A stretch of 64,000 bases of DNA from Acidobacteriota bacterium (GCA_036507075.1 DASXQR010000083.1:64001-128000), one strand, 5' to 3'; positions 12,051 to 27,521 are shown, counted from the first letter of the stretch. Made by a program: numbers and translations. The notes: a model not told the origin generated them from the letters alone.

Positions 12051-13295
12051 ATGAACACGGAAATGGTGACTTTTTACGAAATCAAGAACTACCTCCATTT
12101 CTCTGAGCTGGATATTGACACCCTTAAACAGCTCGGTCCCATGTTCCGTCCGCATTTGAAGGAAATGGCAGATCGTTTTTATGCGGAGATTCCTGACCAT
12201 CCGGATGCCTATAAGGTATTCAGCGGTCCTGCGCAAATTGAAAGGCTGAAGGAATCGCTGCAGGTGTGGGGCGCCGGTTTGTTCTCCGGAGATTACGGCG
12301 AGGATTACGCGCGGCAACGCTATCAGATCGGCTATACGCACGTGCGCATCCAGCTTGCGCAAAAATATGTCATCAGCGCCATGGCAGTAGTGCGCGAGTT
12401 CCTGCATGAAAAAATAAACGAGCAGGTCGATGACGCGCTCCTTCGCATGCAAGCTCATATCAGTATCGACAAAGTTCTGGATCTGGATCTGAACCTGATG
12501 TGCGAGGCCTACTTCGCAGCCAGCCTGCAGGCGCTGACCGATATCAACCGTCGGCTGGAAGAAATGAATCAGAAGCTGCGTGAATCCAGCCAGGTGAAAA
12601 GTGAATTCCTGGCCAGGACATCGCACGAATTGCGTACCCCTCTAAGCTCGATACTCGGTTTTATCCGGCTTGTGCTGGACGGCCTTTGTGAGACACGGGA
12701 AGAGGAAATGGATTTGCTTAACGATGCGTTTCAAGCCGCCGAGCATCTGCTTTCCATTGTCAACGACTTGCTGGACGTGGCGCGCATTGAAGCCGGCAAG
12801 CTGCAGGTTCAGGGCAGGCCTGTGGACCTTCGACCCATCCTGGACCAGGTTATTTCGCTGACTGCATTGCAGGCCCAGCAGAAAGGCATCAAGTTGTTAG
12901 ATGAAACGCACGATAAAGACCTGCCAAGAGTCTGGGCCGATCCGGAACGCTTGAAACAGGTAATCATCAACATTGTCGGAAATGCAGTTAAATTTACAGA
13001 CTATGGCTATGTAACCGTGCGTGCTCGATCGGATGATTCCTTCGTGCGTTTTGAAGTGATTGATACAGGGATTGGCATCGAAAGAGAGAGGCAGAGGGAG
13101 CTGTTCGAAAAATTCAAGCAGGTCGACAGTTCGCTGACACGCAGGCACGGCGGGAGCGGGTTGGGACTGGCCATCAGCAAGCATTTGATAGAAACAATGG
13201 GCGGAGCGATCGAATTGTATAGCGAGGGCTTAGGCCGCGGGACCCACCTGCACTTCACCGTTCCTGTTTGGCGAGAGCCTTCGGATGACAAATGA
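12051..13295 (+). CDS. Globin-coupled (protoglobin) sensor histidine kinase
   Basis: N-terminal globin fold (FY..I, IGYTHVRI proximal His), SHELRTPL, NAVKFT, DTGIG, GSGLGL; no TM helix. Confidence 0.9.
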   Translation: MNTEMVTFYEIKNYLHFSELDIDTLKQLGPMFRPHLKEMADRFYAEIPDHPDAYKVFSGPAQIERLKESLQVWGAGLFSGDYGEDYARQRYQIGYTHVRIQLAQKYVISAMAVVREFLHEKINEQVDDALLRMQAHISIDKVLDLDLNLMCEAYFAASLQALTDINRRLEEMNQKLRESSQVKSEFLARTSHELRTPLSSILGFIRLVLDGLCETREEEMDLLNDAFQAAEHLLSIVNDLLDVARIEAGKLQVQGRPVDLRPILDQVISLTALQAQQKGIKLLDETHDKDLPRVWADPERLKQVIINIVGNAVKFTDYGYVTVRARSDDSFVRFEVIDTGIGIERERQRELFEKFKQVDSSLTRRHGGSGLGLAISKHLIETMGGAIELYSEGLGRGTHLHFTVPVWREPSDDK

Positions 13296-13702
13296 AAACA
13301 GTGCTGGTAGTCGAAGACAACCCGCTGATCCTGAAGTTCTATCGCATGGCTCTGGAGCGTCAGGGTGGATTTAGAGTGCGCACCACCGAGAATGTAAACG
13401 AGATAGTTACCCTGGCGCGGTCCAAGAGTGTGGACGCCGTGATTCTGGACATCTCGCTTTCCAATGCCGAGTATCAGGGTAAGAAAATCGATGGCATCCA
13501 AATCGCGAGGATCTTACGCGAGGATCCCGCGTCTGCTGATATTCCGATCCTGGTGATTACTGCGCATGCGATGGAAGGAGACCGCGAGCGCATTATTCTG
13601 GCCACCGGCGCCGACGATTATCTGCAGAAGCCGATCTACGACACACAGAAACTGGTGGCGAAAATCAATGAGTTGATCCGTTCGCGCAACGAGCAGCCTT
13701 AA
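13292..13702 (+). CDS. Single-domain response regulator
   Basis: VEDN, ILD, TAHAM, KP motifs; ATGA overlap with the kinase. Confidence 0.92.
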   Translation: MKTVLVVEDNPLILKFYRMALERQGGFRVRTTENVNEIVTLARSKSVDAVILDISLSNAEYQGKKIDGIQIARILREDPASADIPILVITAHAMEGDRERIILATGADDYLQKPIYDTQKLVAKINELIRSRNEQP

Positions 13703-13902
13703 AGCACTCCACGCGAGTGTAAATCAAGGATGACGTAGGCAAGGTACAACACAAGCCCGGCGATGCCGCAAGTCAGGCCAAGTCCCAGGAACAGCGTGAC
13801 GGTGCGTGGCGTGAACCAGATCAGGGACACAACCATGGTGGCCAGGGCGATCGTGATCAGGATGGCTGAGATTTGCAAGGTAACGGCAGTTAAGGTTTTC
13901 AT
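13699..13902 (-). CDS. Small two-TM membrane protein
   Basis: Two hydrophobic helices; ATGA-coupled to the cytochrome gene. Confidence 0.7.
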   Translation of the reverse strand: MKTLTAVTLQISAILITIALATMVVSLIWFTPRTVTLFLGLGLTCGIAGLVLYLAYVILDLHSRGVL

Positions 13903-14492
13903 CGGTTCTGCGCCTGTTTTTGCTCTGGATGCACCGGTCCGTGACATTGCAGGCAGTCGGTCTCTTTAGCGGCAATCTGCTTTTGCAGATCTGCGTCATG
14001 TTTCTCCAGAAAACGTCGAGATTCTCCGTGGCAGTGGAGGCAATTCTGGAAATTGTAGGTCCCGCGTAACTTAATGGGGAGCCCGTAAGTGCCGGTTTCG
14101 TACTTCCAAACATGCCGAATCCCCGCCATTTTCGCTTTCACGGGACCGAATACTGTGTAATCGGTATGGCACGAGTAGCACTGATTTTCGAGAATGAACC
14201 GATTCTGATAGTGCCTGGAAGCCAGCGTTTCGCTTTTGGGGTTTTTCAGGTCATTAATAAACGGCCCCATTACATGACATGAACCGCAGAACTCCGGGCT
14301 CTTGGCGTTCTCCATTGTCGTATGTGCGCCCAGCCACAGTGACAGTGTAGGAAACACCGCAACTCCAAATAGAAGAAGCCAGTGTCGCTCGGGCGAATTG
14401 GGCCTTTTTGCCACTCGCACCATCCCCACCAGAATCGCCAGCGAGACCAAGCCCACTACCAGAGAGATGGAATGCAGGTTGAGAGTAGTCAT
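13899..14492 (-). CDS. NapC/NirT-like membrane tetraheme cytochrome c
   Basis: Two N-terminal TM helices; FCGSCHVM, CYSCH, CLHCH, CLQCH. Confidence 0.85.
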   Translation of the reverse strand: MTTLNLHSISLVVGLVSLAILVGMVRVAKRPNSPERHWLLLFGVAVFPTLSLWLGAHTTMENAKSPEFCGSCHVMGPFINDLKNPKSETLASRHYQNRFILENQCYSCHTDYTVFGPVKAKMAGIRHVWKYETGTYGLPIKLRGTYNFQNCLHCHGESRRFLEKHDADLQKQIAAKETDCLQCHGPVHPEQKQAQNR

Positions 14493-14969
14493 AAGGAAAT
14501 GGCAGCAGTTTTCGGACCAGATTCTCACTGGCACTCGGTCTTTATTCGAAACGGCGGAGTTACTCGGCGGTTCTACCTGCTTCACAATCTGACGTCTGGG
14601 ATGATTATCTTCAGTTTCCCATTGCTGGCCAACGGTTAATGTAGTCTCTGGTCAGGGTTTCTTCACTACAGCGAAAAACTTCGCGCGCTCATGGGGCCAA
14701 TCGGGCACGGTCGCATGCGTTGGCCGCCGCGTTCTCCCGAGCGGGTCTTTTCGCGCAGAGTCTGGGTGAATTGCCAAAATGGACGGCTGTCAGGATTCAC
14801 TTTTCTGAAAGCTTTGGCCCCCTTGCCGGCTGGGCCGAGTGCCGAATTGCGAGTTTAGGTGCTTCCACACTCGTCGAGCACTGGCCGCCCATGGCTTCTA
14901 TCGCCCTCTGCGTTTTCCGCAATGCGCAATTACTCCCACTGGTGTGAGAAAACACGCGGTTTTTTTTGA

Positions 14970-15784: not shown

Positions 15785-16370
15785 TTTGAATTGCCGGCGG
15801 GGCGGCGACGAGTAACGAGACAGAGTCGATCTCCCCTTGATTCGTATCAGCTGACGGAACGCTCGGAGAAATATGACCGGCTTTCCCAACGAATGTTCTT
15901 CTGATAAAGTTGATGATCATGATGCCTTCTTGTGTTGCTTGGCGTAAGAAACATCTAGGCCTTAGCGCTGAGAACACGGACCCTCCTTCGGCCGAACCGA
16001 CGCCTTTTTAGTCTCCTTTTACTTTCAGCTTTAGTTGAACTTATTTCTGGCGCAGCAGCCGTTTTCCAGTCTCATACCCGGCCGAGGTGCCTGGAGAGTT
16101 GTGGAGGATTCCGTGGATCTAGCAACGATAATTGTGATCGTTCTTGGCGTTGCCTTTCTTTGCTTTGTGTTTTGGCTCGCGACTGTGAGCAGGAGGGATC
16201 CGAAGCAATAAGGAATAAAGCGAGAACACTCCGGCAGTATCTGTGAGAAAACTCAAGAGGGACCAGCCTGCTATGACCTGTCAGCCTGATCCCCGAGGTT
16301 GGTGAATGTTTACGTTTATCGAAGAGCAGGGAAAAGAGGCACACTGCAATCGTCCCCAAAGTATCAAAAA

Positions 16371-17519
16371 ATGGGTTGTCTACTAAGACTGGCACTGGAT
16401 AATTCGCTGCCTCTGCTGGCCGGAACATCGGCGGCCCTTCTATGGGCAAATCTCGACCCCGGAGTCTACCAATCGGTGTCGGAACCGTTGCATTTTGTCG
16501 TAAACGAAATCGGAATGGTATTCTTCTTCGCCCTGGCCGCAAAGGAAGTCTGCGAAGCGTTGTTGCCCGCAGGACCCTTGGCGTCGTTGAGCCGAGCCGC
16601 CCTGCCGTTGATGGCGACAGTGGGAGGAATGGTCGGCCCCGCCAGCCTCTATCTTCTCGGTGCCTGGTTCTTCGGACATAATGAGTTAGCAAGGGGCTGG
16701 GCGATTCCTTGCGCGACTGATATCGCATTCAGCTACTTGACAACGCGAGCAATATTTGGGGCGAAGCATCCGGCAGTCATTTTCCTGCTGTTGCTGGCAC
16801 TTGCTGACGACGCATTGGGACTCGTCATTCTCGCCTCGTTTTATCCGACTTCCAGCATCAATCTGTTCTGGCTCGCTCTGCTCGCAGGCGGAGGAGTCGG
16901 GCTCGGTCTGCTCCTAAAAAAGACCGGATGGCAATCCTTTTGGATCTATCTATTCGGGCCGGGTGTACTAACCTGGATCGGCTTCTATCTTGGTGGAATT
17001 CATCCAGCGCTGGCTCTTGTCCCAGTTGTATTTTGCATGCCGCATGAGTCCAGGGATCTCGGGATCTTTGACGACCGCGAGGTTGGTCAGAGCGATACAC
17101 TCAGCAGATTAGAGCGCTGGTGGAAAGATCCCGTCCAGGTCATATTAGGCCTTTTCGGCTTTGCCAACGCGGGAGTAGAGCTGACTGCTACCGGGCCCGC
17201 GACATGGCTTGTGCTGGGCGGACTGCTGCTCGGCAAACCTCTTGGCATTCTTCTAGCGACGCGGCTCGGAGCATTATTCGGATTGCGTCTGCCGGACGGG
17301 ATCGGTTGGAAAGATCTGAGCGTGGTTTCTGCTGCGGCAAGCATTGGGTTCACTGTCGCGCTTTTTGTCTCCACGGTGGCGTTTGCATTCGGTACGGCGC
17401 TGGACCACGCAAAAATGGGCGCGCTGCTGAGCCTTGTTGCAGCACCTCTTTCCATAATTCTGGCAAAAATTCTGGGAGTGAAAAAAAGGAGACTTCATCG
17501 TCTTTTTCAATTCTCATAA
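16371..17519 (+). CDS. nhaA: Na+/H+ antiporter NhaA
   Basis: GWAIPCATDIAF, LALADDALG, FANAGV, GKPLG and SIGFTVALF motifs. Confidence 0.92.
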   Translation: MGCLLRLALDNSLPLLAGTSAALLWANLDPGVYQSVSEPLHFVVNEIGMVFFFALAAKEVCEALLPAGPLASLSRAALPLMATVGGMVGPASLYLLGAWFFGHNELARGWAIPCATDIAFSYLTTRAIFGAKHPAVIFLLLLALADDALGLVILASFYPTSSINLFWLALLAGGGVGLGLLLKKTGWQSFWIYLFGPGVLTWIGFYLGGIHPALALVPVVFCMPHESRDLGIFDDREVGQSDTLSRLERWWKDPVQVILGLFGFANAGVELTATGPATWLVLGGLLLGKPLGILLATRLGALFGLRLPDGIGWKDLSVVSAAASIGFTVALFVSTVAFAFGTALDHAKMGALLSLVAAPLSIILAKILGVKKRRLHRLFQFS

Positions 17520-17901: not shown

Positions 17902-18333
17902 ATGAAACGAAGCGAAAAGCTAAGAAAGTTGTCCGAAGATCACCATCATGGTCTGGTGGTGGCGATGGTCCTAAAGGGTGAAAGAAAGCTTCCCGAGGCG
18001 CTCGGCTGGAATGGGCCTCTGCGCACGATCCGTGCCCGCCTGCTGTCCTTTTGGGATACAGACCTGCAAAAACATTTTCGGCAGGAGGAAGAGGAAGTAT
18101 TTCCCGCCGCCGATTTAATCTCACCCGCCGCGCATGCACTTTGCGAGTCTCTCCGCTCTGAGCATCAGGTAATCAGGCAGCAGATCGGTAATATCCGAGC
18201 TGCTAACGAAAAGGATCTGGCGCCGTTACTGGCCGGTCTGGGAAATATTCTGGAACAGCACATCCGAAAGGAAGAGCGCGAGCTGTTTGAGCTGATAGAA
18301 GCAGCGGGTGTGGAGGATATGAAGGACAGCTGA
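17902..18333 (+). CDS. Hemerythrin-like (HHE) domain protein
   Basis: LSEDHHHGL, HFRQEEE..FP, EH and HIRKEERELF motifs. Confidence 0.85.
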   Translation: MKRSEKLRKLSEDHHHGLVVAMVLKGERKLPEALGWNGPLRTIRARLLSFWDTDLQKHFRQEEEEVFPAADLISPAAHALCESLRSEHQVIRQQIGNIRAANEKDLAPLLAGLGNILEQHIRKEERELFELIEAAGVEDMKDS

Positions 18334-19370
18334 TGTTCAGGACGATCAATATCCGCGCATTGGCAGTCGCTGCGCTGACAACACTTATTCTGGTGCTGAT
18401 GATCGTCGCCGGTTCGCGCAATCTTCAGAACTTCGACGCAGCGCTTGTCGGTTATCTGTTCGCCACGATTTTTGCGGTTTTTGGAATCACCTACCGATAT
18501 GCGGTCTGGCTGCAAAGACCCCCTACACGCTTGTACTGGCGCCGCGGTTGGCAACTGCTGTTTTCGCGGCATCTGGTCGGCGGCGTCAAAGCTATTATCC
18601 GAAGCATAACGACCGACTACATAGCACAGCGGTTCATCGCCAGAAGATCGTGGCCCCGGTGGGCGGTTCATTTTCTGCTCGCTTGGGGATGTATCATCGC
18701 GTTCGCGGTCACCTTTCCGCTTGTTTTCGGGTGGATTCATTTTGAGACTCTCCCAGGATCTCCGATTCAATATCGGACCTTCATCTTTGGGTTTCCAGCG
18801 ATGCGTTTCTATGTTCAATCGGTGCTGGCGTGGAACATATTCCACGCTCTCGACTGGGCGGCCGTGATGGTGGTTGCCGGCGTCGTTTTCGCCGTCAGAA
18901 GACGACTCGTCGACCCCGGCCTGCTTGCAACGCAGACATTTTCTCGTGACTGGCTGCCACTCATAATTCTGTTTGCGGTCTCGATCACGGGTCTTCTTCT
19001 GACGGCGAGCGCGATGTGGATGAAAGGGGCGCACTACAGCTTTCTGGCGCTGACGCACGAAATTACAGTGATTTTCTTCTTAATCTGGCTGCCCTTCGGG
19101 AAGTTCTTTCATATTTTCCAGCGCCCGGCTCAATTGGGAGTTTCCGTCTACAAGCAGGCAGGCAGTGATCTGCCTGCAGCACGGTGCGCGCGCTGCGGAA
19201 CAGAATACGCCTCAACCCTGCATGTGAACGATCTTAAACAAGTAACAAAAGAACTTGGGATGGATTACGAATATTCCTCAAACGACCATCATCTTGATCT
19301 CTGCCCTGCCTGCAAGAGGGCTCGCTATGCCGAGTCTCACATGCAGGCGAAGAGAGGGCAAGCGTTCTAA
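18333..19370 (+). CDS. NarI/DsrM-like polytopic membrane protein with C-terminal CxxC..CxxC
   Basis: About 7 TM helices; H-x17-H pair ending PFGKFFH; CARC and CPAC tail; TGATG coupling. Confidence 0.7.
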
Positions 19371-19377
19371 ATCACTT

Positions 19378-21549
19378 ATGGCAAAACTGCCTCAGACCGG
19401 AGACGAATTAATCAAGATTTACGGACCCCACCTGAATTACCCGCGCAAGGAGTCGGGCGTCGCTTCCGATGTACCTGACCATCTGGTTCAAACTCATTGC
19501 TGCTTCTGCGGAATGCAGTGCGGTATCCAGCTCAAGGTTAAGGACAATCGCGTTGTCGGTTTTGAACCCTGGGAAGAATTCCCATTCAACGAGGGGCGGT
19601 TGTGCCCGAAAGGTGTGCAGCGTTATTTGCAGAACGAGCACCCGGACAGGCTGCTGCACCCGCTGATCCGCTCTGACGCGGGATTCCGGCCTGGAAGCTG
19701 GGACGAAGCGATGACAAAGACGGCGGCTGAAATCCGCCGCATCCAGGACAAATACGGCAAGAACGCTTTCGCGATGCTTTCCGGTGTGTCGCTGAATAAT
19801 GAGAAATCTTATCTGGTCGGCAAGTTTGCCCGCGTGGCACTGCAAACCGCCAATCTTGATTATAACGGCAGGCTCTGCATGGTGAGCGCAGGGGCGGGAA
19901 ACAAGAAAGCCTTCGGCATCGACCGCGCCGCCAACCCCTGGAGCGACTTGCTGCACAGTAATCTGATTTTCATCGCCGGCAGCAACGTGGGCGAGTGTTT
20001 TCCCACTTTGACCGATTACATCTGGAAGGCGCGCGATCGCGGCGCTCGTCTCATTGTTGTAGATCCGCGCGAGACCCCGGTAGCGCGCACCGCCGATCTT
20101 CATGTGGCGATCCGTCCGGGAAGAGACCTGGCCCTGATGAATGCAATCCTGAGCCTGCTTATTCAGTGGAACCGCCTGGACCACGAGTTCATCGCTCATC
20201 ACACCACCGGATTTGAAAGCGTGCGCCAGGCGGCCACTGAAATGAGCCTCTCGGACGCGGCTCACCTGTGCGGCGTTCCCGAGGGCCAGATAATCAAGGC
20301 TGCACAAATGTGGTCGGATGCCAAAAACTCCATCCTGCTGCATGCGCGCGGGATCGAACACCATACCAAGGGCGTGGACAACGTACTCAGTTGCATCAAC
20401 CTGGTCCTGGCAACCGGCCGGCTTGGACGTAAGGGATGCGGCTACGGAACGATCACCGGCCAGGGCAATGGACAGGGAGGCCGCGAGCACGGCCATAAGT
20501 GTGACCAGCTTCCTGGAAACCGCGACATAGAGAACCCCGAACACCGCAAATACATCTCTGACGTCTGGGGCATTCGGGAAGAAGACCTTCCGCGTAAGGG
20601 ACTGAGTGCGCAGGAAATCGTGGATGCGATACATAAAGGCGAGATCCGCGGCCTGCTCTCCATCTGTTTTAACCCGCTCGTATCGCTTCCCGACACCAGC
20701 CACACGCGCCAGGCACTGGAGAAACTCGAGTTCTATGCCGCAATCGACTTTTTCCTGAATGAGACGGCGCATCATGCCGACGTGGTTTTCCCGGGTTCGC
20801 TGCACGAGGAGGACGATGGCACCAGCACCAGCGCTGAGGCGCGCGTGATTCGCTGCCGTAAAGCCGTCGATCCTCCCGGTGAGGCGCGCCAGGATTGGAA
20901 GATTCTCTGCGAGATAGCCGATCGACTCGGCCGTGGAAAGCATTTTGATTACCAGTCATCGGAGCGGATTTTTGAGGAACTGAGAATCGCCTCGCGCGGC
21001 GGAACGGCAGATTATTACGGCATCACTTATGACAAGATTGAGAAAAACTACGGAGTCTTCTGGCCCTGTCCTTCGGAAGATCATCCCGGCACTCCGCGCC
21101 TGTTTGAGGACCGGCGCTCGTATCATCCGGACGGAAAGTTTCATTTTCAAGCCGTCCGTTACCGTCCATCGGCGGAAGAGACTGACGCCGAATTTCCGGT
21201 TGTTCTAACTACCGGCCGCGTAGTGTCGCAGTATCTCAGCGGAACGCAAACGCGTCGCATCGGGATGCTCGTAGATCAGTATCCTGAGCCCAGGCTGGAG
21301 ATACATCCTCATCTGGCGGCGCGCTATGGAATCGCCACGGGCGACTTGGTCAGAGTGACCAGCCGGCGCGGCAGCATGGAGCTGCCGGCCCTGGTCACAG
21401 AGACCATTCGAGCCGATACGGTCTTCATTCCATATCATTGGCCTGGAAAGCAGGCGGCCAATCAGTTGACGCAGCGCGCGCTCGATCCTGTTTCCAAAAT
21501 CCCTGAATTCAAGGTTTCCGCAGTCCGGTTGCAGAAGGTGGCGCGATGA
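19378..21549 (+). CDS. Molybdopterin oxidoreductase, NasA/NapA-type nitrate reductase catalytic subunit (cytoplasmic)
   Basis: CCFCGMQC...LCPKG 4Fe-4S, RLCMVS Mo-Cys motif, [14 protein letters not shown] end; no Tat signal. Confidence 0.88.
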
Positions 21550-22112
21550 GCGAAGCGGAATTCTTCGTTGACCCGCAACGCTGCATCGGGTGCCACGCGT
21601 GCGAAACGGCATGTGCGGAATGCGGCACGCACAAAGGTCTGCCGATGATCCACGTCGACTATGTAGACCGGTCGAGATCGACACAGACCGTTCCAATGGT
21701 CTGCATGCATTGCGAAGACCCCGCCTGTGCTCAGGTATGTCCTGCGTACGCCATTCAAAAAACCGCCGATGGGGTAGTGCACTCAGCGACGACGCCGCGC
21801 TGCATCGGGTGCTCAAACTGCGTGCTCGCTTGTCCGTTTGGAGTACCGAAGTACATGGCAGGAATGGACCTGATGATGAAATGCGACATGTGTTATGACC
21901 GCACTTCGATAGGAAAGCGGCCGATGTGTGCGACGGTCTGTCCCACGGGCGCGCTCTGGTACGGTTCGCGTGAACAGCTTCAGAAGGAGCGCAGGAGCGT
22001 TCCAGTGAATCAGTTCCGGTTCGGCGGTCAGTTGGTACGTACAAGAGTTCATGTGATGGTCCACTCAGGCGAGACGCTGGTGCAGATAAAGGGAGTGAAT
22101 TTGCGAGGGTAG
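21546..22112 (+). CDS. DmsB/NrfC-like 4Fe-4S electron transfer subunit
   Basis: [46 protein letters not shown]. Confidence 0.92.
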
Positions 22113-22637
22113 GTGACGGATATGAGACCCCAATCGGTTGAGACTCCCAGGTCGGCGGAGCCCAAATGGAAAAATGATTTTCCGCTGGATTACGGCGAAG
22201 ATGAACACGTTAGTCGCCGCGAGTTTGCCAAGTTTCTGGTACTCACAAGTTTGGGTCTCTTTGTCGGAAATTGCTGGATTGCGTTAAAGCAATGGTTCGG
22301 CCCGTCGAAAGGCGGCTTTCCTCAAATACGGATTGCCGCATTGGATCAGATTCGCATTGGAGAAATGCTTCAGTTCCGATACCCCGATGAAAAGTCACCG
22401 GCCATTCTGATCAGGCTTTCGGAAACAGAACTAGTCGCCTATGGGCAGAAGTGCACCCACCTGTCCTGCGCGGTTTACTGGGAACCGGGGGATGGAAGGA
22501 TCGCCTGTCCCTGCCATCACGGCTTTTTCGATGTGCGCGATGGCCATGTTTTGGCCGGCCCGCCGCCCCGTTCCCTGCCGCGCATTCCGCTCAGAATCCA
22601 GGGAGCAGACATCTTTGCCACGGGAGTGGAAATATGA
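22113..22637 (+). CDS. Membrane-anchored Rieske 2Fe-2S protein
   Basis: SRREF followed by a TM helix; CTHLSC and CPCHHG boxes; GPPPRSL. Confidence 0.92.
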   Translation: MTDMRPQSVETPRSAEPKWKNDFPLDYGEDEHVSRREFAKFLVLTSLGLFVGNCWIALKQWFGPSKGGFPQIRIAALDQIRIGEMLQFRYPDEKSPAILIRLSETELVAYGQKCTHLSCAVYWEPGDGRIACPCHHGFFDVRDGHVLAGPPPRSLPRIPLRIQGADIFATGVEI

Positions 22638-22864
22638 GTGATATTAAGGACGCGCAGAAGAACATTACTGCCCAGAAGCGCAATGCCATTCTGGCTGGAA
22701 TCATCAGCATTCTTTGCATATTCGTGATCGCCCAGGTGTGGTTGCTAACCGCCGCTCTGGAAGCTTACCTGGCTGGAAACCCGGACGTTGCCATACCTGC
22801 GGCACTGGTCGCGGCAGGTTGCTTTGCGCTTGCCGCAGGATTGCTTCGGTACCTGCCTGATTAG
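22634..22864 (+). CDS. Small two-TM protein (DUF6755-like)
   Basis: ATGA overlap with the Rieske gene; QVWLLTAALEAYLAG. Family name recalled, not searched. Confidence 0.75.
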   Translation: MSDIKDAQKNITAQKRNAILAGIISILCIFVIAQVWLLTAALEAYLAGNPDVAIPAALVAAGCFALAAGLLRYLPD

Positions 22865-22886
22865 CTAGTTGCTAATGAAGGTTGTG

Positions 22887-24065
22887 ATGAAAGACTCGAA
22901 CAGGAACTTGACGCTCTCCACGCTTGCCTTTGCTGTGACCTTTTCCTGTTGGGGCTTGATCGCTGCGCTGGCGCCTCTCTTCAAGACCTCATTCGGTTTG
23001 AGTGCGACACAGGTTGGAATAATGGTGGCGATACCGGTCCTTCTCGGGTCTGTAGGGAGGTTGGGCGCAGGGTGGCTTGCGGACCGTTTCGGAGCAAGAA
23101 GCGTTATGGCGTTCCTGCTGATTTTTGGAACGATCCCACCGCTTGCGCTGAGCTTTGTTCGTTCTTACGAAGCGGTCCTCTTCTGGGGTTTTTTCCTCGG
23201 CGCGGCGGGAACTTCGTTCCCCGTCGGAGTCGCGCTTGTGTCGCGTTGCTTCCCAAAGGAGCGGGCCGGGTTTGCCCTGGGTGTTTACGGGGCAGGTAAC
23301 ATCGGGCAGTCGATCGCCGTGTTTTTTGCGCCGGTGCTGGCGCGCGGCGTCGGTCCGGATTGGACTTTCCGGGCATTTGCGCTGCTATCGGCCCTCGGCG
23401 GGATGCTGGTCTGGCTCCTGATGAAAGAACCTGACCACGGTCGTCCTCAAATGAACTGGCGTGAAACGGCGGCTGTTTTTCGCGAGAGGAAAACCTTTAT
23501 TCTGAGTCTGTTCTATTTTTTGACTTTTGGCGGCTTTATCGCGCTTGGGATCTTTCTGCCCACATTGTTGCGTGAAATGTTCAGCCTTTCAGCCGCTGAC
23601 GCCGGCGCGCGAACCGCAGGGTTTGTGCTTGTCGCCACACTTGCGCGTCCTCTGGGTGGATGGCTCAGCGACAGTTGGGGAGGTCAGCGGATGCTCATGT
23701 TCGTCTTCGGAGGACTTGCAGCCATAGCGTGGTTGATGTTCAGTCACAACATAGTCCTTTTCACCTTTTCGGCCCTCGGCTCCGCCCTGTTGCTGGGCCT
23801 GGGCAATGGTGCCGTTTTTAAACTGGTGCCCGAGTACTTTCCGGTACGCACCGGCACGGTAACCGGCATCGTGGGCGCAACGGGTGGATTGGGCGGGTTC
23901 TTCCCACCACTGGTGCTGGGCATGTTCCGAGACCAGTTTGGAAGTTACGGCCCTGGATTTTTGCTGCTCAGTGCGTTCGCCGCGGCATGTCTGTTGATCA
24001 ACTGGACTGCAACATCAACACCGGCAAGGACCAGAAACATGGATCCGATGTCGGCGCGGCGATGA
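22887..24065 (+). CDS. narK: NarK/NasA-family nitrate/nitrite MFS transporter
   Basis: MFS topology; GSVGR, GAGNIG, FGGF, ARPLGGWLSD, GNGAVFKLVP and GGLGGFFPP signatures. Confidence 0.88.
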   Translation: MKDSNRNLTLSTLAFAVTFSCWGLIAALAPLFKTSFGLSATQVGIMVAIPVLLGSVGRLGAGWLADRFGARSVMAFLLIFGTIPPLALSFVRSYEAVLFWGFFLGAAGTSFPVGVALVSRCFPKERAGFALGVYGAGNIGQSIAVFFAPVLARGVGPDWTFRAFALLSALGGMLVWLLMKEPDHGRPQMNWRETAAVFRERKTFILSLFYFLTFGGFIALGIFLPTLLREMFSLSAADAGARTAGFVLVATLARPLGGWLSDSWGGQRMLMFVFGGLAAIAWLMFSHNIVLFTFSALGSALLLGLGNGAVFKLVPEYFPVRTGTVTGIVGATGGLGGFFPPLVLGMFRDQFGSYGPGFLLLSAFAAACLLINWTATSTPARTRNMDPMSARR

Positions 24066-24978: not shown

Positions 24979-27342
24979 TTAATACGGCCACTTCCAGTCG
25001 CGAATCTCAGGCATGTCGTCGCCGTATTTACAAATGTACTGCTTATGTTCGAGGAGCTTGTCACGCATGGCTTGCTTGACATAGGCAGCCTTTGAACCTA
25101 ACTTCGGTAGGCGCTCTATAACGTCTTCAACCAGGTGGAAGCGGTCGAGGTCGTTAAGAACCGTCATGTCAAACGGCGTCGTGGTCGTGCCCTCCTCTTT
25201 GTATCCACGCACGTGAAGGTTGCGGTGATTTGTGCGACGGTAGGCCAGCCGGTGAATCAACCAGGGATAACCATGAAAGGCGAACACGACAGGCCTGTCA
25301 GTTGTAAAGAGCGAATCGAAATCTTTGTCAGACAACCCGTGCGGATGCTCCCGCGCGGGTTGGAGTGTCATCAAATCGACGACGTTGACCACGCGAACCC
25401 GTAGTTCCGGAAAGCGGTGACGGAGGATATCCACCGCCGCAAGTGTTTCCAGCGTCGCAATGTCGCCGGCACACGCCATCACAACGTCCGGCTCTGCACC
25501 TTCGTCGTTGCTTGCCCATTTCCAAATGCCTATACCTGCGGTGCAGTGTTTGATGGCGGCATCCATATCGAGATATTGCAGCGCAGGTTGCTTGCCCGCC
25601 ACAATGACATTCACGTAGTGGCGGCTCCTCAGGCAATGGTCCGTCACGGAGAGGAGCGTGTTGGCGTCGGGCGGAAAATAGACACGAACGATTTCCGCCT
25701 TCTTGTTGACGACATGATCGATAAAGCCGGGATCCTGGTGGCTGAAGCCGTTGTGATCCTGCCGCCAGACATGCGAGGTGAGCAGATAGTTGAGAGAAGC
25801 AATCGGACGGCGCCACGGAATATGACGCGTCACTTTCAGCCACTTGGCATGCTGGTTGAACATGGAATCAACGATGTGAATAAACGCCTCGTAACAGGAG
25901 AAAAAGCCATGCCGACCGGTGAGCAGGTAACCTTCCAGCCAGCCCTGGCACATATGTTCGCTCAAGACCTCCATTACCCGCCCGTCAGGTGAGATATGGT
26001 CGTCGCCGGGCGAAATACTGCCGGTGAAAACTCGGTCGGTCACCTCAAACACTGCACCCAAGCGGTTTGAGGCTGTTTCGTCCGGGCCCATCAAGCGGAA
26101 ATTACGACTTTCGGCGTTACACTTGATAACGTCGCGAAGGAATCGTCCCATCACGCGTGTGGCTTCTGCCTCCAGGGTGCCTGGGTTCGGGACATCGACG
26201 GCGTAGTCGCGAAAATCCGGCAGCTTTAAATCCTTAAGGAGCAGCCCTCCATTGGCGTGGGGGTTGGCACCCATGCGAAGCCTTCCTCGGGGCGCAAGTT
26301 CTGCAAGCTCCGGCACAAGCCGCCCGTTTTCATCGAATAGTTCTTCGGGCTTGTAGCTGCGCATCCACTGTTCAAGCATCTTTAGATGTTCCGGCTTGCT
26401 TGCCAGCTCTGCCAGCGGAACCTGGTGGGAGCGGAACGAATTCTCTGTTGGCAAACCATCAACGATCTTTGGCCCGGTCCAACCTTTTGGCGTACGCAGC
26501 ACGATCATCGGCCACCGCTGACGGCGGAAGAAGCCATTGGTTCGGGCGTCTCTCTGAATTGCCTGGATCTCGGCGAGCACTGAGTCGAGTGTGTGCGCCA
26601 TGAGTTGATGCATCTTTTCCGGCTCGTTGCCCTCGACAAAGTATGGCGTGTAGCCATAACCGACAAAAAGGCTTGTCAGCTCTTCGTCGTTGAGCCGCGC
26701 CAGGAGGGTGGGATTGGCAATCTTGTAGCCATTCAAATGCAGAATGGGCAAAACGGCGCCGTCATGCACCGGATTGAGGAACTTGTTGGAATGCCAGCTC
26801 GCGGCCAGGGGGCCTGTCTCCGCTTCACCGTCGCCGATGACGCAAGCTGCCAGTAAGTCGGGATTGTCGAACACGGCACCGTAGGCGTGAACCAGCGCGT
26901 AACCAAGTTCGCCACCTTCATGGATTGATCCGGGGGTTTCCGGTGCCACGTGGCTCGGAATGCCGCCGGGGAATGAAAACTGTGTAAAAAGCTTTTTCAG
27001 CCCCTCGGTATCCTGCGAGATGCTGGGATAAACCTCGCTGTATGTTCCCTCCAGGTAAGTGTTGGCGACCAGACCGGGGCCGCCATGGCCCGGGCCGGTG
27101 ATGTAGAGAACATTCAGATCATGCGCCTTAATCAGGCGATTAAGATGCGCGTAAATGAAATTAAGCCCCGGCGTCGTCCCCCAGTGGCCAAGCAGTCTCG
27201 GCTTGATGTGGCAAAGCTCCAGGGGCTTACGCAGCAGAGGATTGTCGTACAGGTAAATTTGACCAACCGAAAGATAATTCGCCGCTCGCCAGTAGGCATT
27301 TATCTTCCGTACTTCCTCTGCAGTTAAGGGTGTTTCTTTCAT
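24979..27342 (-). CDS. xfp: Xylulose-5-P/fructose-6-P phosphoketolase
   Basis: [24 protein letters not shown] and [12 protein letters not shown] motifs. Confidence 0.97.
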
Positions 27343-27521
27343 CTCACGATAACGCTCTGCTGGAGCCGATGTAAATCTTACGCAACTTTCCTGCCAGAAA
27401 CGCCGCCTACGAACTGGTCCTCTGCCGAATGCTTTCAGCCTGCGCAAGAATTACGAGTGTATTCCTTACGGTTGGGTTACATCACCTAACTTCTGGCGGG
27501 AAAGAAAAGGAAAAAGGGAGA

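Follow-up and report, generated by a model that had tools for sequence, protein, structure and literature searches.

Surveys based on marker genes classify nitrate reductases as Nas, Nap or Nar according to the catalytic subunit. NasC and NasA are treated as exclusively assimilatory by Wells et al. 2023 (PMC10100899). In haloarchaea, a Rieske protein (NarB) and a cytochrome b (NarC) belong to the nitrate reductase operon, and a Q-cycle coupling has been proposed for them (PMC2483277). Heylen et al. 2012 described a 729-aa nasC of B. bataviensis linked to iron-sulfur (Fe-S) and Rieske genes and far from nirBD, which they read as alternative assimilation; they mention no membrane subunit there, and the linkage may correspond to the operon presented here (PMC3475470). 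The operon lies in a 64,000-nt stretch from an Acidobacteriota bacterium (GCA_036507075.1 DASXQR010000083.1:64001-128000; hereafter the window, in which all positions are counted). We consider it fairly probable, from its sequence and its relatives, that it encodes a membrane-bound, quinol-fed nitrate reductase with a cytoplasmic active site, serving respiration or redox balancing rather than assimilation. Its genes are the following:

17902..18333, + strand: hemerythrin-domain protein, 143 aa (PF01814, E 1.8e-16).
18333..19370, + strand: membrane subunit with a NarI fold, 345 aa (AlphaFold2 model, fold matches, conservation).
19378..21549, + strand: catalytic subunit with molybdenum (Mo)-bis(pyranopterin guanine dinucleotide) and a [4Fe-4S] cluster, 723 aa, NasC-related (NF047855, motifs, tree).
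21546..22112, + strand: four-cluster Fe-S subunit, DmsB/FdnH-like, 188 aa (cluster cysteines, DmsB match).
22122..22637 (alternative GTG start at 22113), + strand: AioB-like Rieske protein, 171 aa (TIGR02694).
22634..22864, + strand: DUF6755 two-helix membrane protein, 76 aa (PF20540, E 4.9e-18).
22875..24065 (start possibly 22869 or 22887), + strand: NarK-like nitrate/nitrite transporter of the major facilitator superfamily (MFS), 396 aa (TIGR00886).

From 18333 to 24065, six intact open reading frames (ORFs) run on one strand. ATGA overlaps join the Mo gene to the Fe-S gene and the Rieske gene to the DUF6755 gene; the membrane and Mo genes are 7 nt apart, the DUF6755 and NarK genes at least 4 nt, and the Fe-S and Rieske genes 0-9 nt, depending on the choice of Rieske start. 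Since the stop of the hemerythrin gene (17902-18333) shares TGATG with the start of the membrane gene, and all other junctions either overlap or are no wider than about 10 nt, the operon probably comprises seven genes in the window. The hemerythrin is an accessory member and probably binds O2/NO or repairs Fe-S clusters. A first-pass annotation of the window had described the six ORFs as coupled genes: a NarI-like protein with a His pair 18 residues apart and a CxxC..CxxC tail, a catalytic subunit with RLCM and no twin-arginine translocation (Tat) signal, a four-cluster DmsB-like subunit, a Rieske protein with SRREF and no Ser in box 2, a small transmembrane protein and NarK. All six genes and every one of these motifs were found again, as detailed below; the hemerythrin gene had been overlooked.

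The catalytic subunit carries RLCM at residues 165-168 (Cys167-Met168), and its N-terminus has neither a twin-arginine motif nor a signal peptide. Its best NCBIfam family is the assimilatory NasC (NF047855), with 846.8 bits and thus under the cut-off of 1100, a weak test given that a nirBD-linked Deinococcus enzyme scores only 663. The formate dehydrogenase (FDH) alpha family TIGR01591 came second with 625 against a cut-off of 666, and NapA (TIGR01706) reached 249 against 930. Of 27 NCBIfam matches, the 25 best do not include NarG, whose family TIGR01580 had no match in this genome. By sequence, the top PDB matches are formate dehydrogenases. Regarding the active site, all the cluster sequences displayed carry Cys-Met and TGQ(G/A)NGQGGRE, of which Cys-Met, TGQ and (G/A)RE are shared with the NasA, NasC and NapA references; the FDH references displayed have Cys/Sec-His (one Gln) and RGQ or RGH. 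The FDH His and the Arg of RGQNN are absent from every cluster sequence displayed, with Met and Thr in their places. In an IQ-TREE phylogeny (LG+G4, 33 sequences, 702 columns), whose reference sampling is thin and which leaves out 10 redundant cluster sequences, cyanobacterial NarB, B. subtilis NasC and haloarchaeal NasA, the cluster enzymes form one clade (ultrafast bootstrap 96), sister to the nirBD-linked Deinococcus NasC (100) and apart from the FDH clade (97), AioA, proteobacterial NasA and NapA. The root, a 751-aa protein from genome G063, is a long and unreliable branch, and we draw no order of events from it. Such a tree had been named beforehand as a possible refutation, and the catalytic subunit does not group with formate dehydrogenases. 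The other refutation named, a membrane protein that binds no heme, is not indicated as far as the sequence allows, the His pair of the proximal heme being conserved.

Six membrane helices are predicted for the membrane subunit, with a cytoplasmic CxxC...CxxC tail (C285, C288...C324, C327). Single-sequence searches gave no match in Pfam or PDB, and cytochrome b (PF00033) was not matched either. The AlphaFold2 model, built from 123 sequences, has a predicted local distance difference test score of 95.8. Its best fold match is M. smegmatis EtfD (Z 11.6, root-mean-square deviation (rmsd) 4.7, 229 aligned), followed by E. coli NarI (1q16_C; Z 10.7, rmsd 4.6, 181 aligned, model residues 35-303) and then by a match at Z 7.9. 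These Z values for EtfD and NarI are moderate for a helical bundle, yet consistent with the sequence evidence. The NarI family PF02665 is matched at E<=0.01 by 54 of the 123 homologues, and a profile alignment (hhalign, probability 91.7, residues 174-275) places H242 and H260, 18 residues apart, on E. coli NarI H187 and H205. Foldseek returned nothing at E<=0.001 with the model; NarI ranked first nonetheless. For residues 280-334, the likeness is to the HycF tail (Z 6.1; profile E 0.034). Five homologues (P0026, P0046, P0079, P0084 and P0132) have three of the four tail cysteines replaced (C,T..S,G), and the tail metal site is therefore dispensable in one lineage.

Across the 111 aligned rows that span the region, H113, H242 and H260 are jointly present in 107 and T127 is near-invariant (Thr in 102). 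H171 is found in 81 rows (Asn in 25) and H136 in 69. A diheme reading with four His was dropped, H136 and H171 being invariant in 80 close relatives and not in the diverse set. By topology rather than residue-level alignment, H113 would correspond to NarI H56. A three-His arrangement is described for EMO, in which H87 and H251 bind a proximal heme and H233 a stacked distal twin heme, the other axial site of the latter being taken by A101 of SaEMO (Ser in an HdrE model); these hemes are of low potential, at -80 and -220 mV (bioRxiv 10.64898/2026.08.18.745454). The spacings of +14 and +18 in our subunit match the EMO/HdrE pattern, with Thr at His+14 here. EtfD has a His pattern like that of EMO but one heme (PMC13083937), and for this reason the membrane subunit could possibly bind one, two or three hemes.

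Fusions of NarK to the membrane subunit are common: there are 1779 long homologues, and the MFS_1 domain was found in all of the best 120, many of which are named NarK/NNP. The name 'MFS transporter' given to the membrane gene in Deinococcus records likely stems from this fusion. MFS proteins end in the cytoplasm, so the fusion implies an N-in topology for the membrane subunit. Apparent fusions between the membrane and Mo subunits were unusable for topology, since P0209 and P0264 are garbled over long stretches and P0239 at its junction, a pattern expected of frameshifted assemblies.

Among the remaining proteins, the Fe-S subunit has 16 cluster cysteines and C26, with its cysteines kept in 65-67 of 67 proteins, and DmsB as best match. 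The Rieske protein belongs closest to the AioB family TIGR02694, and AioB provides its top four PDB matches by sequence and its top ten by fold. Its model shows an anchor helix (26-59), a linker and a head. The anchor motif is SRREFAK, with RR in 73 of 73 aligned proteins within RRxFxK, and the disulfide cysteines C116 and C131 are equally invariant (73/73); TatC is encoded in this genome. In box 2, Gly stands in 72 of 73 proteins at what we take, from the bc1 register, to be the Ser position, and Phe in all 73 at the corresponding Tyr position. Box-2 Ser and Tyr raise the Rieske potential. A conserved PxWxxDFP precedes the twin arginines (window 22161-22184); it would remain cytoplasmic and may clip onto the Fe-S or the Mo subunit. 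The DUF6755 protein is likely a core small subunit, and the transporter matches TIGR00886 with E 1.3e-65 and 221.9 bits, below the cut-off of 311.7. Besides, some loci have an unannotated 439-aa, signal-peptide-like gene between the Fe-S and Rieske genes (L004:11900-13400, L026:12408-13724, L063); this family, seen in 4 loci, has no Pfam match.

Relatives of the membrane protein occur at 414 places in the genome collection, from which the best 80 were kept, and form at least 6073 clusters at 90% identity. Within the window's phylum, 31 of 251 genomes carry the membrane gene, split in two of them. The DUF6755 marker was found in 2 of 31 closer relatives, and the operon is therefore patchy. Carriers are also labelled Planctomycetes, Myxococcales, Acidimicrobiia, Chthonomonadales, Deinococcus and Brevibacillus, in the last two on plasmids; the Brevibacillus copy lies beside NarK, Ahb/NirJ-type heme radical SAM genes and, read from sequence, a Crp-type regulator. 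Where the downstream flank reaches 4.5 kb or more (61 loci, one of them rearranged), the genes for the Mo, Fe-S and Rieske proteins are always present and DUF6755 is in 59. Core order is maintained in 59 of the 61 loci that are long enough, and thus is not a product of chance.

We then counted neighbours in 104 loci, some of them short, some near-duplicates and two chosen for a known adjacent nrfA. NarK was found in 44, SLAC1/TDT in 38, RIC in 34, Crp/Fnr in 25, hemerythrin in 21, YwiC in 12, Rrf2 in 10, NrfA in 8, NosZ in 6, bc-type cytochrome b in 5 and qNor in 3, while NirA, NirD and NirB (the last above 150 bits) were found in none. A conserved cytochrome c gene is lacking from the related loci, and no narJ was seen at the operon. 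Of the 72 loci of at least 12 kb, 33 have only NarK, 29 only SLAC1/TDT, 2 both and 8 neither, counts that include kin and are not independent. A SLAC1/TDT gene replaces NarK behind the operon in such loci (e.g. L048:12675-13694), which suggests that nitrate or nitrite is moved by cluster-linked bacterial SLAC1/TDT proteins. In L150 and L151, nrfH-nrfA come immediately before the membrane gene and in the same direction, making these loci candidate compact operons for dissimilatory nitrate reduction to ammonium (DNRA).

In order to place the operon in its genomic context, we compared 31 carriers, at least 90% complete, with 20 listed non-carriers of 220. NrfA was found in 20/31 carriers versus 4/20 non-carriers, full NarG in 9/31 versus 1/20, NapA in 1/31 versus 0/20 and the NIR_SIR domain in 15/31 versus 15/20, so that it is absent from 16 of the carriers; no NirK was over the cut-off in either group. 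Six carriers have NrfA without NarG, NapA or NIR_SIR (G061, G063, G089, G098, G216 and G252); in four of them the NrfA match spans a stop, with open frames of 492-528 aa. The genome of one, G063, is a single contig, and its other Mo proteins are one of FDH type (910 aa), one of 751 aa that lacks nitrate-type motifs, and a weak match of 502 aa. According to these results, the gene context of the operon is dissimilatory. For the window itself, the first-pass annotation had reported neither a nitrite reductase nor a cytochrome b, and genome-wide searches agree: the only cytochrome b of this genome, of the bc type, is on contig C59, its only siroheme reductase is on contig C163, and no NrfA was found. 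The latter reductase is a 764-aa NirA/Sir-type protein (L092:9152-11446) with a long C-terminal extension, and its gene adjoins genes that, read from sequence, resemble purine-degradation enzymes.

From gene order, motifs, fold, fusions and co-occurrence we infer heme binding, complex formation, sidedness, quinol use, the direction of electron flow and a role for the Rieske protein, as follows. NarK, or a SLAC1/TDT channel in other carriers, would bring nitrate in and let nitrite out, as linkage and fusion suggest, and cytoplasmic reduction of nitrate to nitrite would fall to the Mo subunit, judged by its motifs and its place in the tree. The Mo and Fe-S subunits are placed at the cytoplasmic face, near the H113/H260 heme and the four-Cys tail, because of the lack of a signal peptide, the N-in topology given by the NarK fusion and the homology to NarI. 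By analogy with EMO, a distal heme site on H242, possibly a twin heme with T127, would oxidise quinol at the outer face. Electrons would then run from the outer quinol site to the distal site, on to the H113/H260 heme and, by way of the Fe-S subunit, to the Mo centre, in a redox loop like that of NarGHI. The Rieske protein, with its Tat anchor motif, would face outward as a second electron port beside the distal site. Nitrite would go to NrfAH in many carriers and be excreted or assimilated in others; either may be its fate in the window's genome.

This matches much of what had been proposed at first, a quinol-coupled, possibly Q-cycle-like nitrate reductase. A membrane-bound, likely quinol-coupled enzyme outside Nas, Nap and Nar is supported by the active-site residues, the tree, the NarI fold, the NarK fusions and the dissimilatory context. 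The classical Q-cycle is unsupported, because a bc-type cytochrome b is near only 5 of 104 loci and the three His are of the EMO/HdrE/EtfD type. We also consider a version in which one outer quinol site splits electrons without a bc-type cytochrome b, sending one to the AioB-like Rieske protein and the other, through a low-potential twin heme (H242/T127), to the NasC-type subunit; the Rieske electron would continue to cytochrome c, NrfA, NosZ or an oxidase. Assimilatory nitrate reductases need stronger reductants than quinol, a need that the NasC-type subunit would share in this version. Such bifurcation is quite unlikely in our estimate; if true, it would be a fourth prokaryotic nitrate reductase architecture and would provide nrfA-positive bacteria that have neither narG nor napA with the nitrate step that their DNRA lacks.

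Several observations weigh against a quinol-fed respiratory enzyme. The nearest named family of the catalytic subunit is the assimilatory NasC, and the Rieske protein is nearest to AioB, an arsenite oxidase subunit that binds its Mo partner directly in the periplasm. The position of the fourth NarI heme ligand (H113+10 = 123) is occupied by Ala, Ser or Gly, so that this ligand is absent. Regarding the genomes, 15 of the 31 carriers have NIR_SIR, five (G078, G082, G083, G233 and G266) have neither NrfA nor NIR_SIR, and nine also keep NarG, so that the operon cannot be read as a plain replacement for it. The window's genome (95.7% complete) gave no NrfA, NirK, NirB, NarG or NapA, and its single NirA/Sir-type gene is on another contig. 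Moreover, the 20 non-carriers all belong to the window's class, most carriers to other classes and 12 carriers to one family, so that these counts are not independent and we attach no statistic to them. Finally, in 89 loci, which are related, we scanned the 300 nt that precede the membrane gene for several motifs. FNR boxes at two mismatches were not enriched (8/89 loci versus 11.3 shuffled), and sigma-54-like sites at one mismatch occurred in 8/89 loci versus 2.2 shuffled (maximum 3 in 10 shuffles), an enrichment compatible with either nitrogen or NO control; CRP-like sites numbered 3 versus 0.4 shuffled. The window as a whole has 29 FNR-box matches versus 25.3 expected, none of them before the hemerythrin gene.

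The alternative that survives best, though an unlikely one, is an assimilatory nitrate reductase, fed from the membrane or by ferredoxin through the Fe-S subunit and delivering nitrite to a reductase of the NirA type, at least in carriers like the window's genome. One could argue for it from the NasC ancestry, the sigma-54-like sites in 8/89 loci, the NirA/Sir-type gene without NrfA in this genome and the reading of the B. bataviensis nasC-FeS-Rieske linkage as an alternative assimilatory system (PMC3475470). However, NIR_SIR is missing from 16/31 complete carriers and from 17/40 further carriers (of unreported completeness), and neither nirA, nirB (at 150 bits) nor nirD was found in any of the 104 loci. 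NIR_SIR proteins of 751-776 aa also occur in 10/20 genomes without the cluster, and hence the NirA/Sir copy of this genome, of the same length class, need not partner the operon.

An enzyme facing the periplasm is improbable. In that case the Tat signal of the Rieske protein would co-export the Mo and Fe-S subunits as in AioBA, and the membrane subunit would feed from outside. The AioB matches of the Rieske protein (top ten by fold, top four by sequence) are in line with this, as is its being the sole subunit with a Tat motif, invariant in 73/73, in a genome with TatC. It is opposed by the fully ligated H113/H260 heme and the four-Cys tail on what we place as the cytoplasmic side, by a Mo subunit that is not AioA-like, and by the frequent NarK fusions and the NarK or SLAC1/TDT gene in 64/72 long loci, which an outside-facing site would not need.

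Even less probable is that the Rieske protein is an entry port from a periplasmic cytochrome c, supplied by a bc complex or alternative complex III, and that the complex itself oxidises no quinol. Electron exchange with cytochrome c is a property of AioB-type proteins (PDB 8ed4), a bc-type cytochrome b is encoded in this genome, and the distal NarI His ligand is missing. Nevertheless, a Rieske protein that lacks both potential-raising residues and EMO-type hemes at -80/-220 mV would make the path uphill, and the loci have no cytochrome c gene as a conserved member. A substrate other than nitrate, such as formate or another oxyanion, with NarK as a mere neighbour, is very improbable: formate dehydrogenases as top PDB matches, the TIGR01591 score (625 vs 666) and TDT-family neighbours named tellurite/dicarboxylate transporters would favour it, but the FDH His and Arg are absent, the Mo subunit lies outside the FDH clade, NarK is found fused to the membrane subunit and nrfAH in the same gene run.

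Around the operon, a protoglobin-domain histidine kinase at 12051-13702 (+), about 4 kb upstream and overlapping a small response-regulator-like ORF, is a candidate O2/NO sensor; it is not recurrent as a neighbour among the first 80 loci. A NapC/NirT-family membrane cytochrome c with four CxxCH motifs lies at 13899-14585 (-), and no nrfA or napAB partner for it was found in the genome. The NhaA-type Na+/H+ antiporter upstream (16299-17519, +) and a phosphoketolase-like gene, read from sequence, downstream (24979-27447, -) are ordinary neighbours whose linkage to the operon is not conserved. In L084 (G000:C157), a formate dehydrogenase alpha gene has an in-frame TGA (selenocysteine) at the ligand position and is followed by an Fe-S subunit gene.

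The operon is real, conserved and widespread, and it appears to be unstudied. The earlier statement that it lacks a characterisation holds as far as the literature found reaches: subscription literature being mostly outside the scope of the search, we found no more than one passing mention of the linkage (PMC3475470) and no paper containing DUF6755 or PF20540. Gene surveys would class the enzyme as an assimilatory NasC, and its anchor is annotated as an MFS transporter; if the enzyme is dissimilatory, nitrate respiration and DNRA are undercounted in abundant soil and sludge bacteria. A survey of Acidobacteriota found nrfAH in 23 genomes, with napAB or narGHI alongside in only 11 (PMC8100337), and the enzyme could fill part of this gap. 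Besides, the operon could serve to test the twin-heme cofactor in a second system, suggests a function for DUF6755 and hints at nitrate or nitrite as the cargo of bacterial SLAC1/TDT proteins.

By comparing the operon with known systems, the closest likeness in working is to NarGHI with NarK (E. coli, PDB 1Q16), with which it shares a NarI-fold anchor, H242/H260 in the places of H187/H205, an Fe-S wire subunit, a link to NarK and, we propose, a cytoplasmic site. It differs in its 723-aa, Cys-ligated catalytic subunit of the NasC type, where NarG has about 1200 aa and an Asp ligand; in having three invariant His, with none at the position of NarI H66, instead of the four His and two bis-His hemes of NarGHI; and in its extra N-terminal helix, four-Cys tail, Rieske protein and DUF6755. 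NasC (NF047855; the Deinococcus aquaticus enzyme L156) is the nearest relative of the catalytic subunit and has the same Cys-Met and TGQ..GGRE motifs, but our enzyme scores below the family cut-off and has membrane, Fe-S and Rieske partners. NasB, NirBD and nirA are not beside it, with NirA/NirBD in 0/104 loci; half of the carriers have no siroheme nitrite reductase, and the NirA/Sir gene of the window's genome lies elsewhere. Unlike Nap, the catalytic subunit has no Tat signal and falls outside the NapA clade. The membrane domains of EMO, HdrE and EtfD (PDB 9OJN) share the best fold match, the three His and the 18-residue spacing, and the spacing is what suggests a likeness to the EMO twin heme. 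In contrast to them, our subunit has no fused Hdr-type cluster domains, has a Rieske partner and is predicted to carry electrons from the outside inward, to nitrate. AioAB resembles the operon in Rieske fold and sequence, in the Tat anchor on that subunit and in a signal-less Mo subunit of the same broad clade, whereas AioA-type subunits have no amino-acid ligand and ours has a Cys ligand and a 4Fe-4S motif; the operon also has a separate four-cluster subunit and a NarI-type anchor, and no arsenic genes recur nearby. Haloarchaeal Nar has NarG and a bc-type cytochrome b, neither of which is in the operon. Hence, the operon would be neither Nap, formate dehydrogenase, Aio nor a Q-cycle complex, stands apart from Nas by its partners and, without being a member of NarGHI, is best likened to it in the way it would work.

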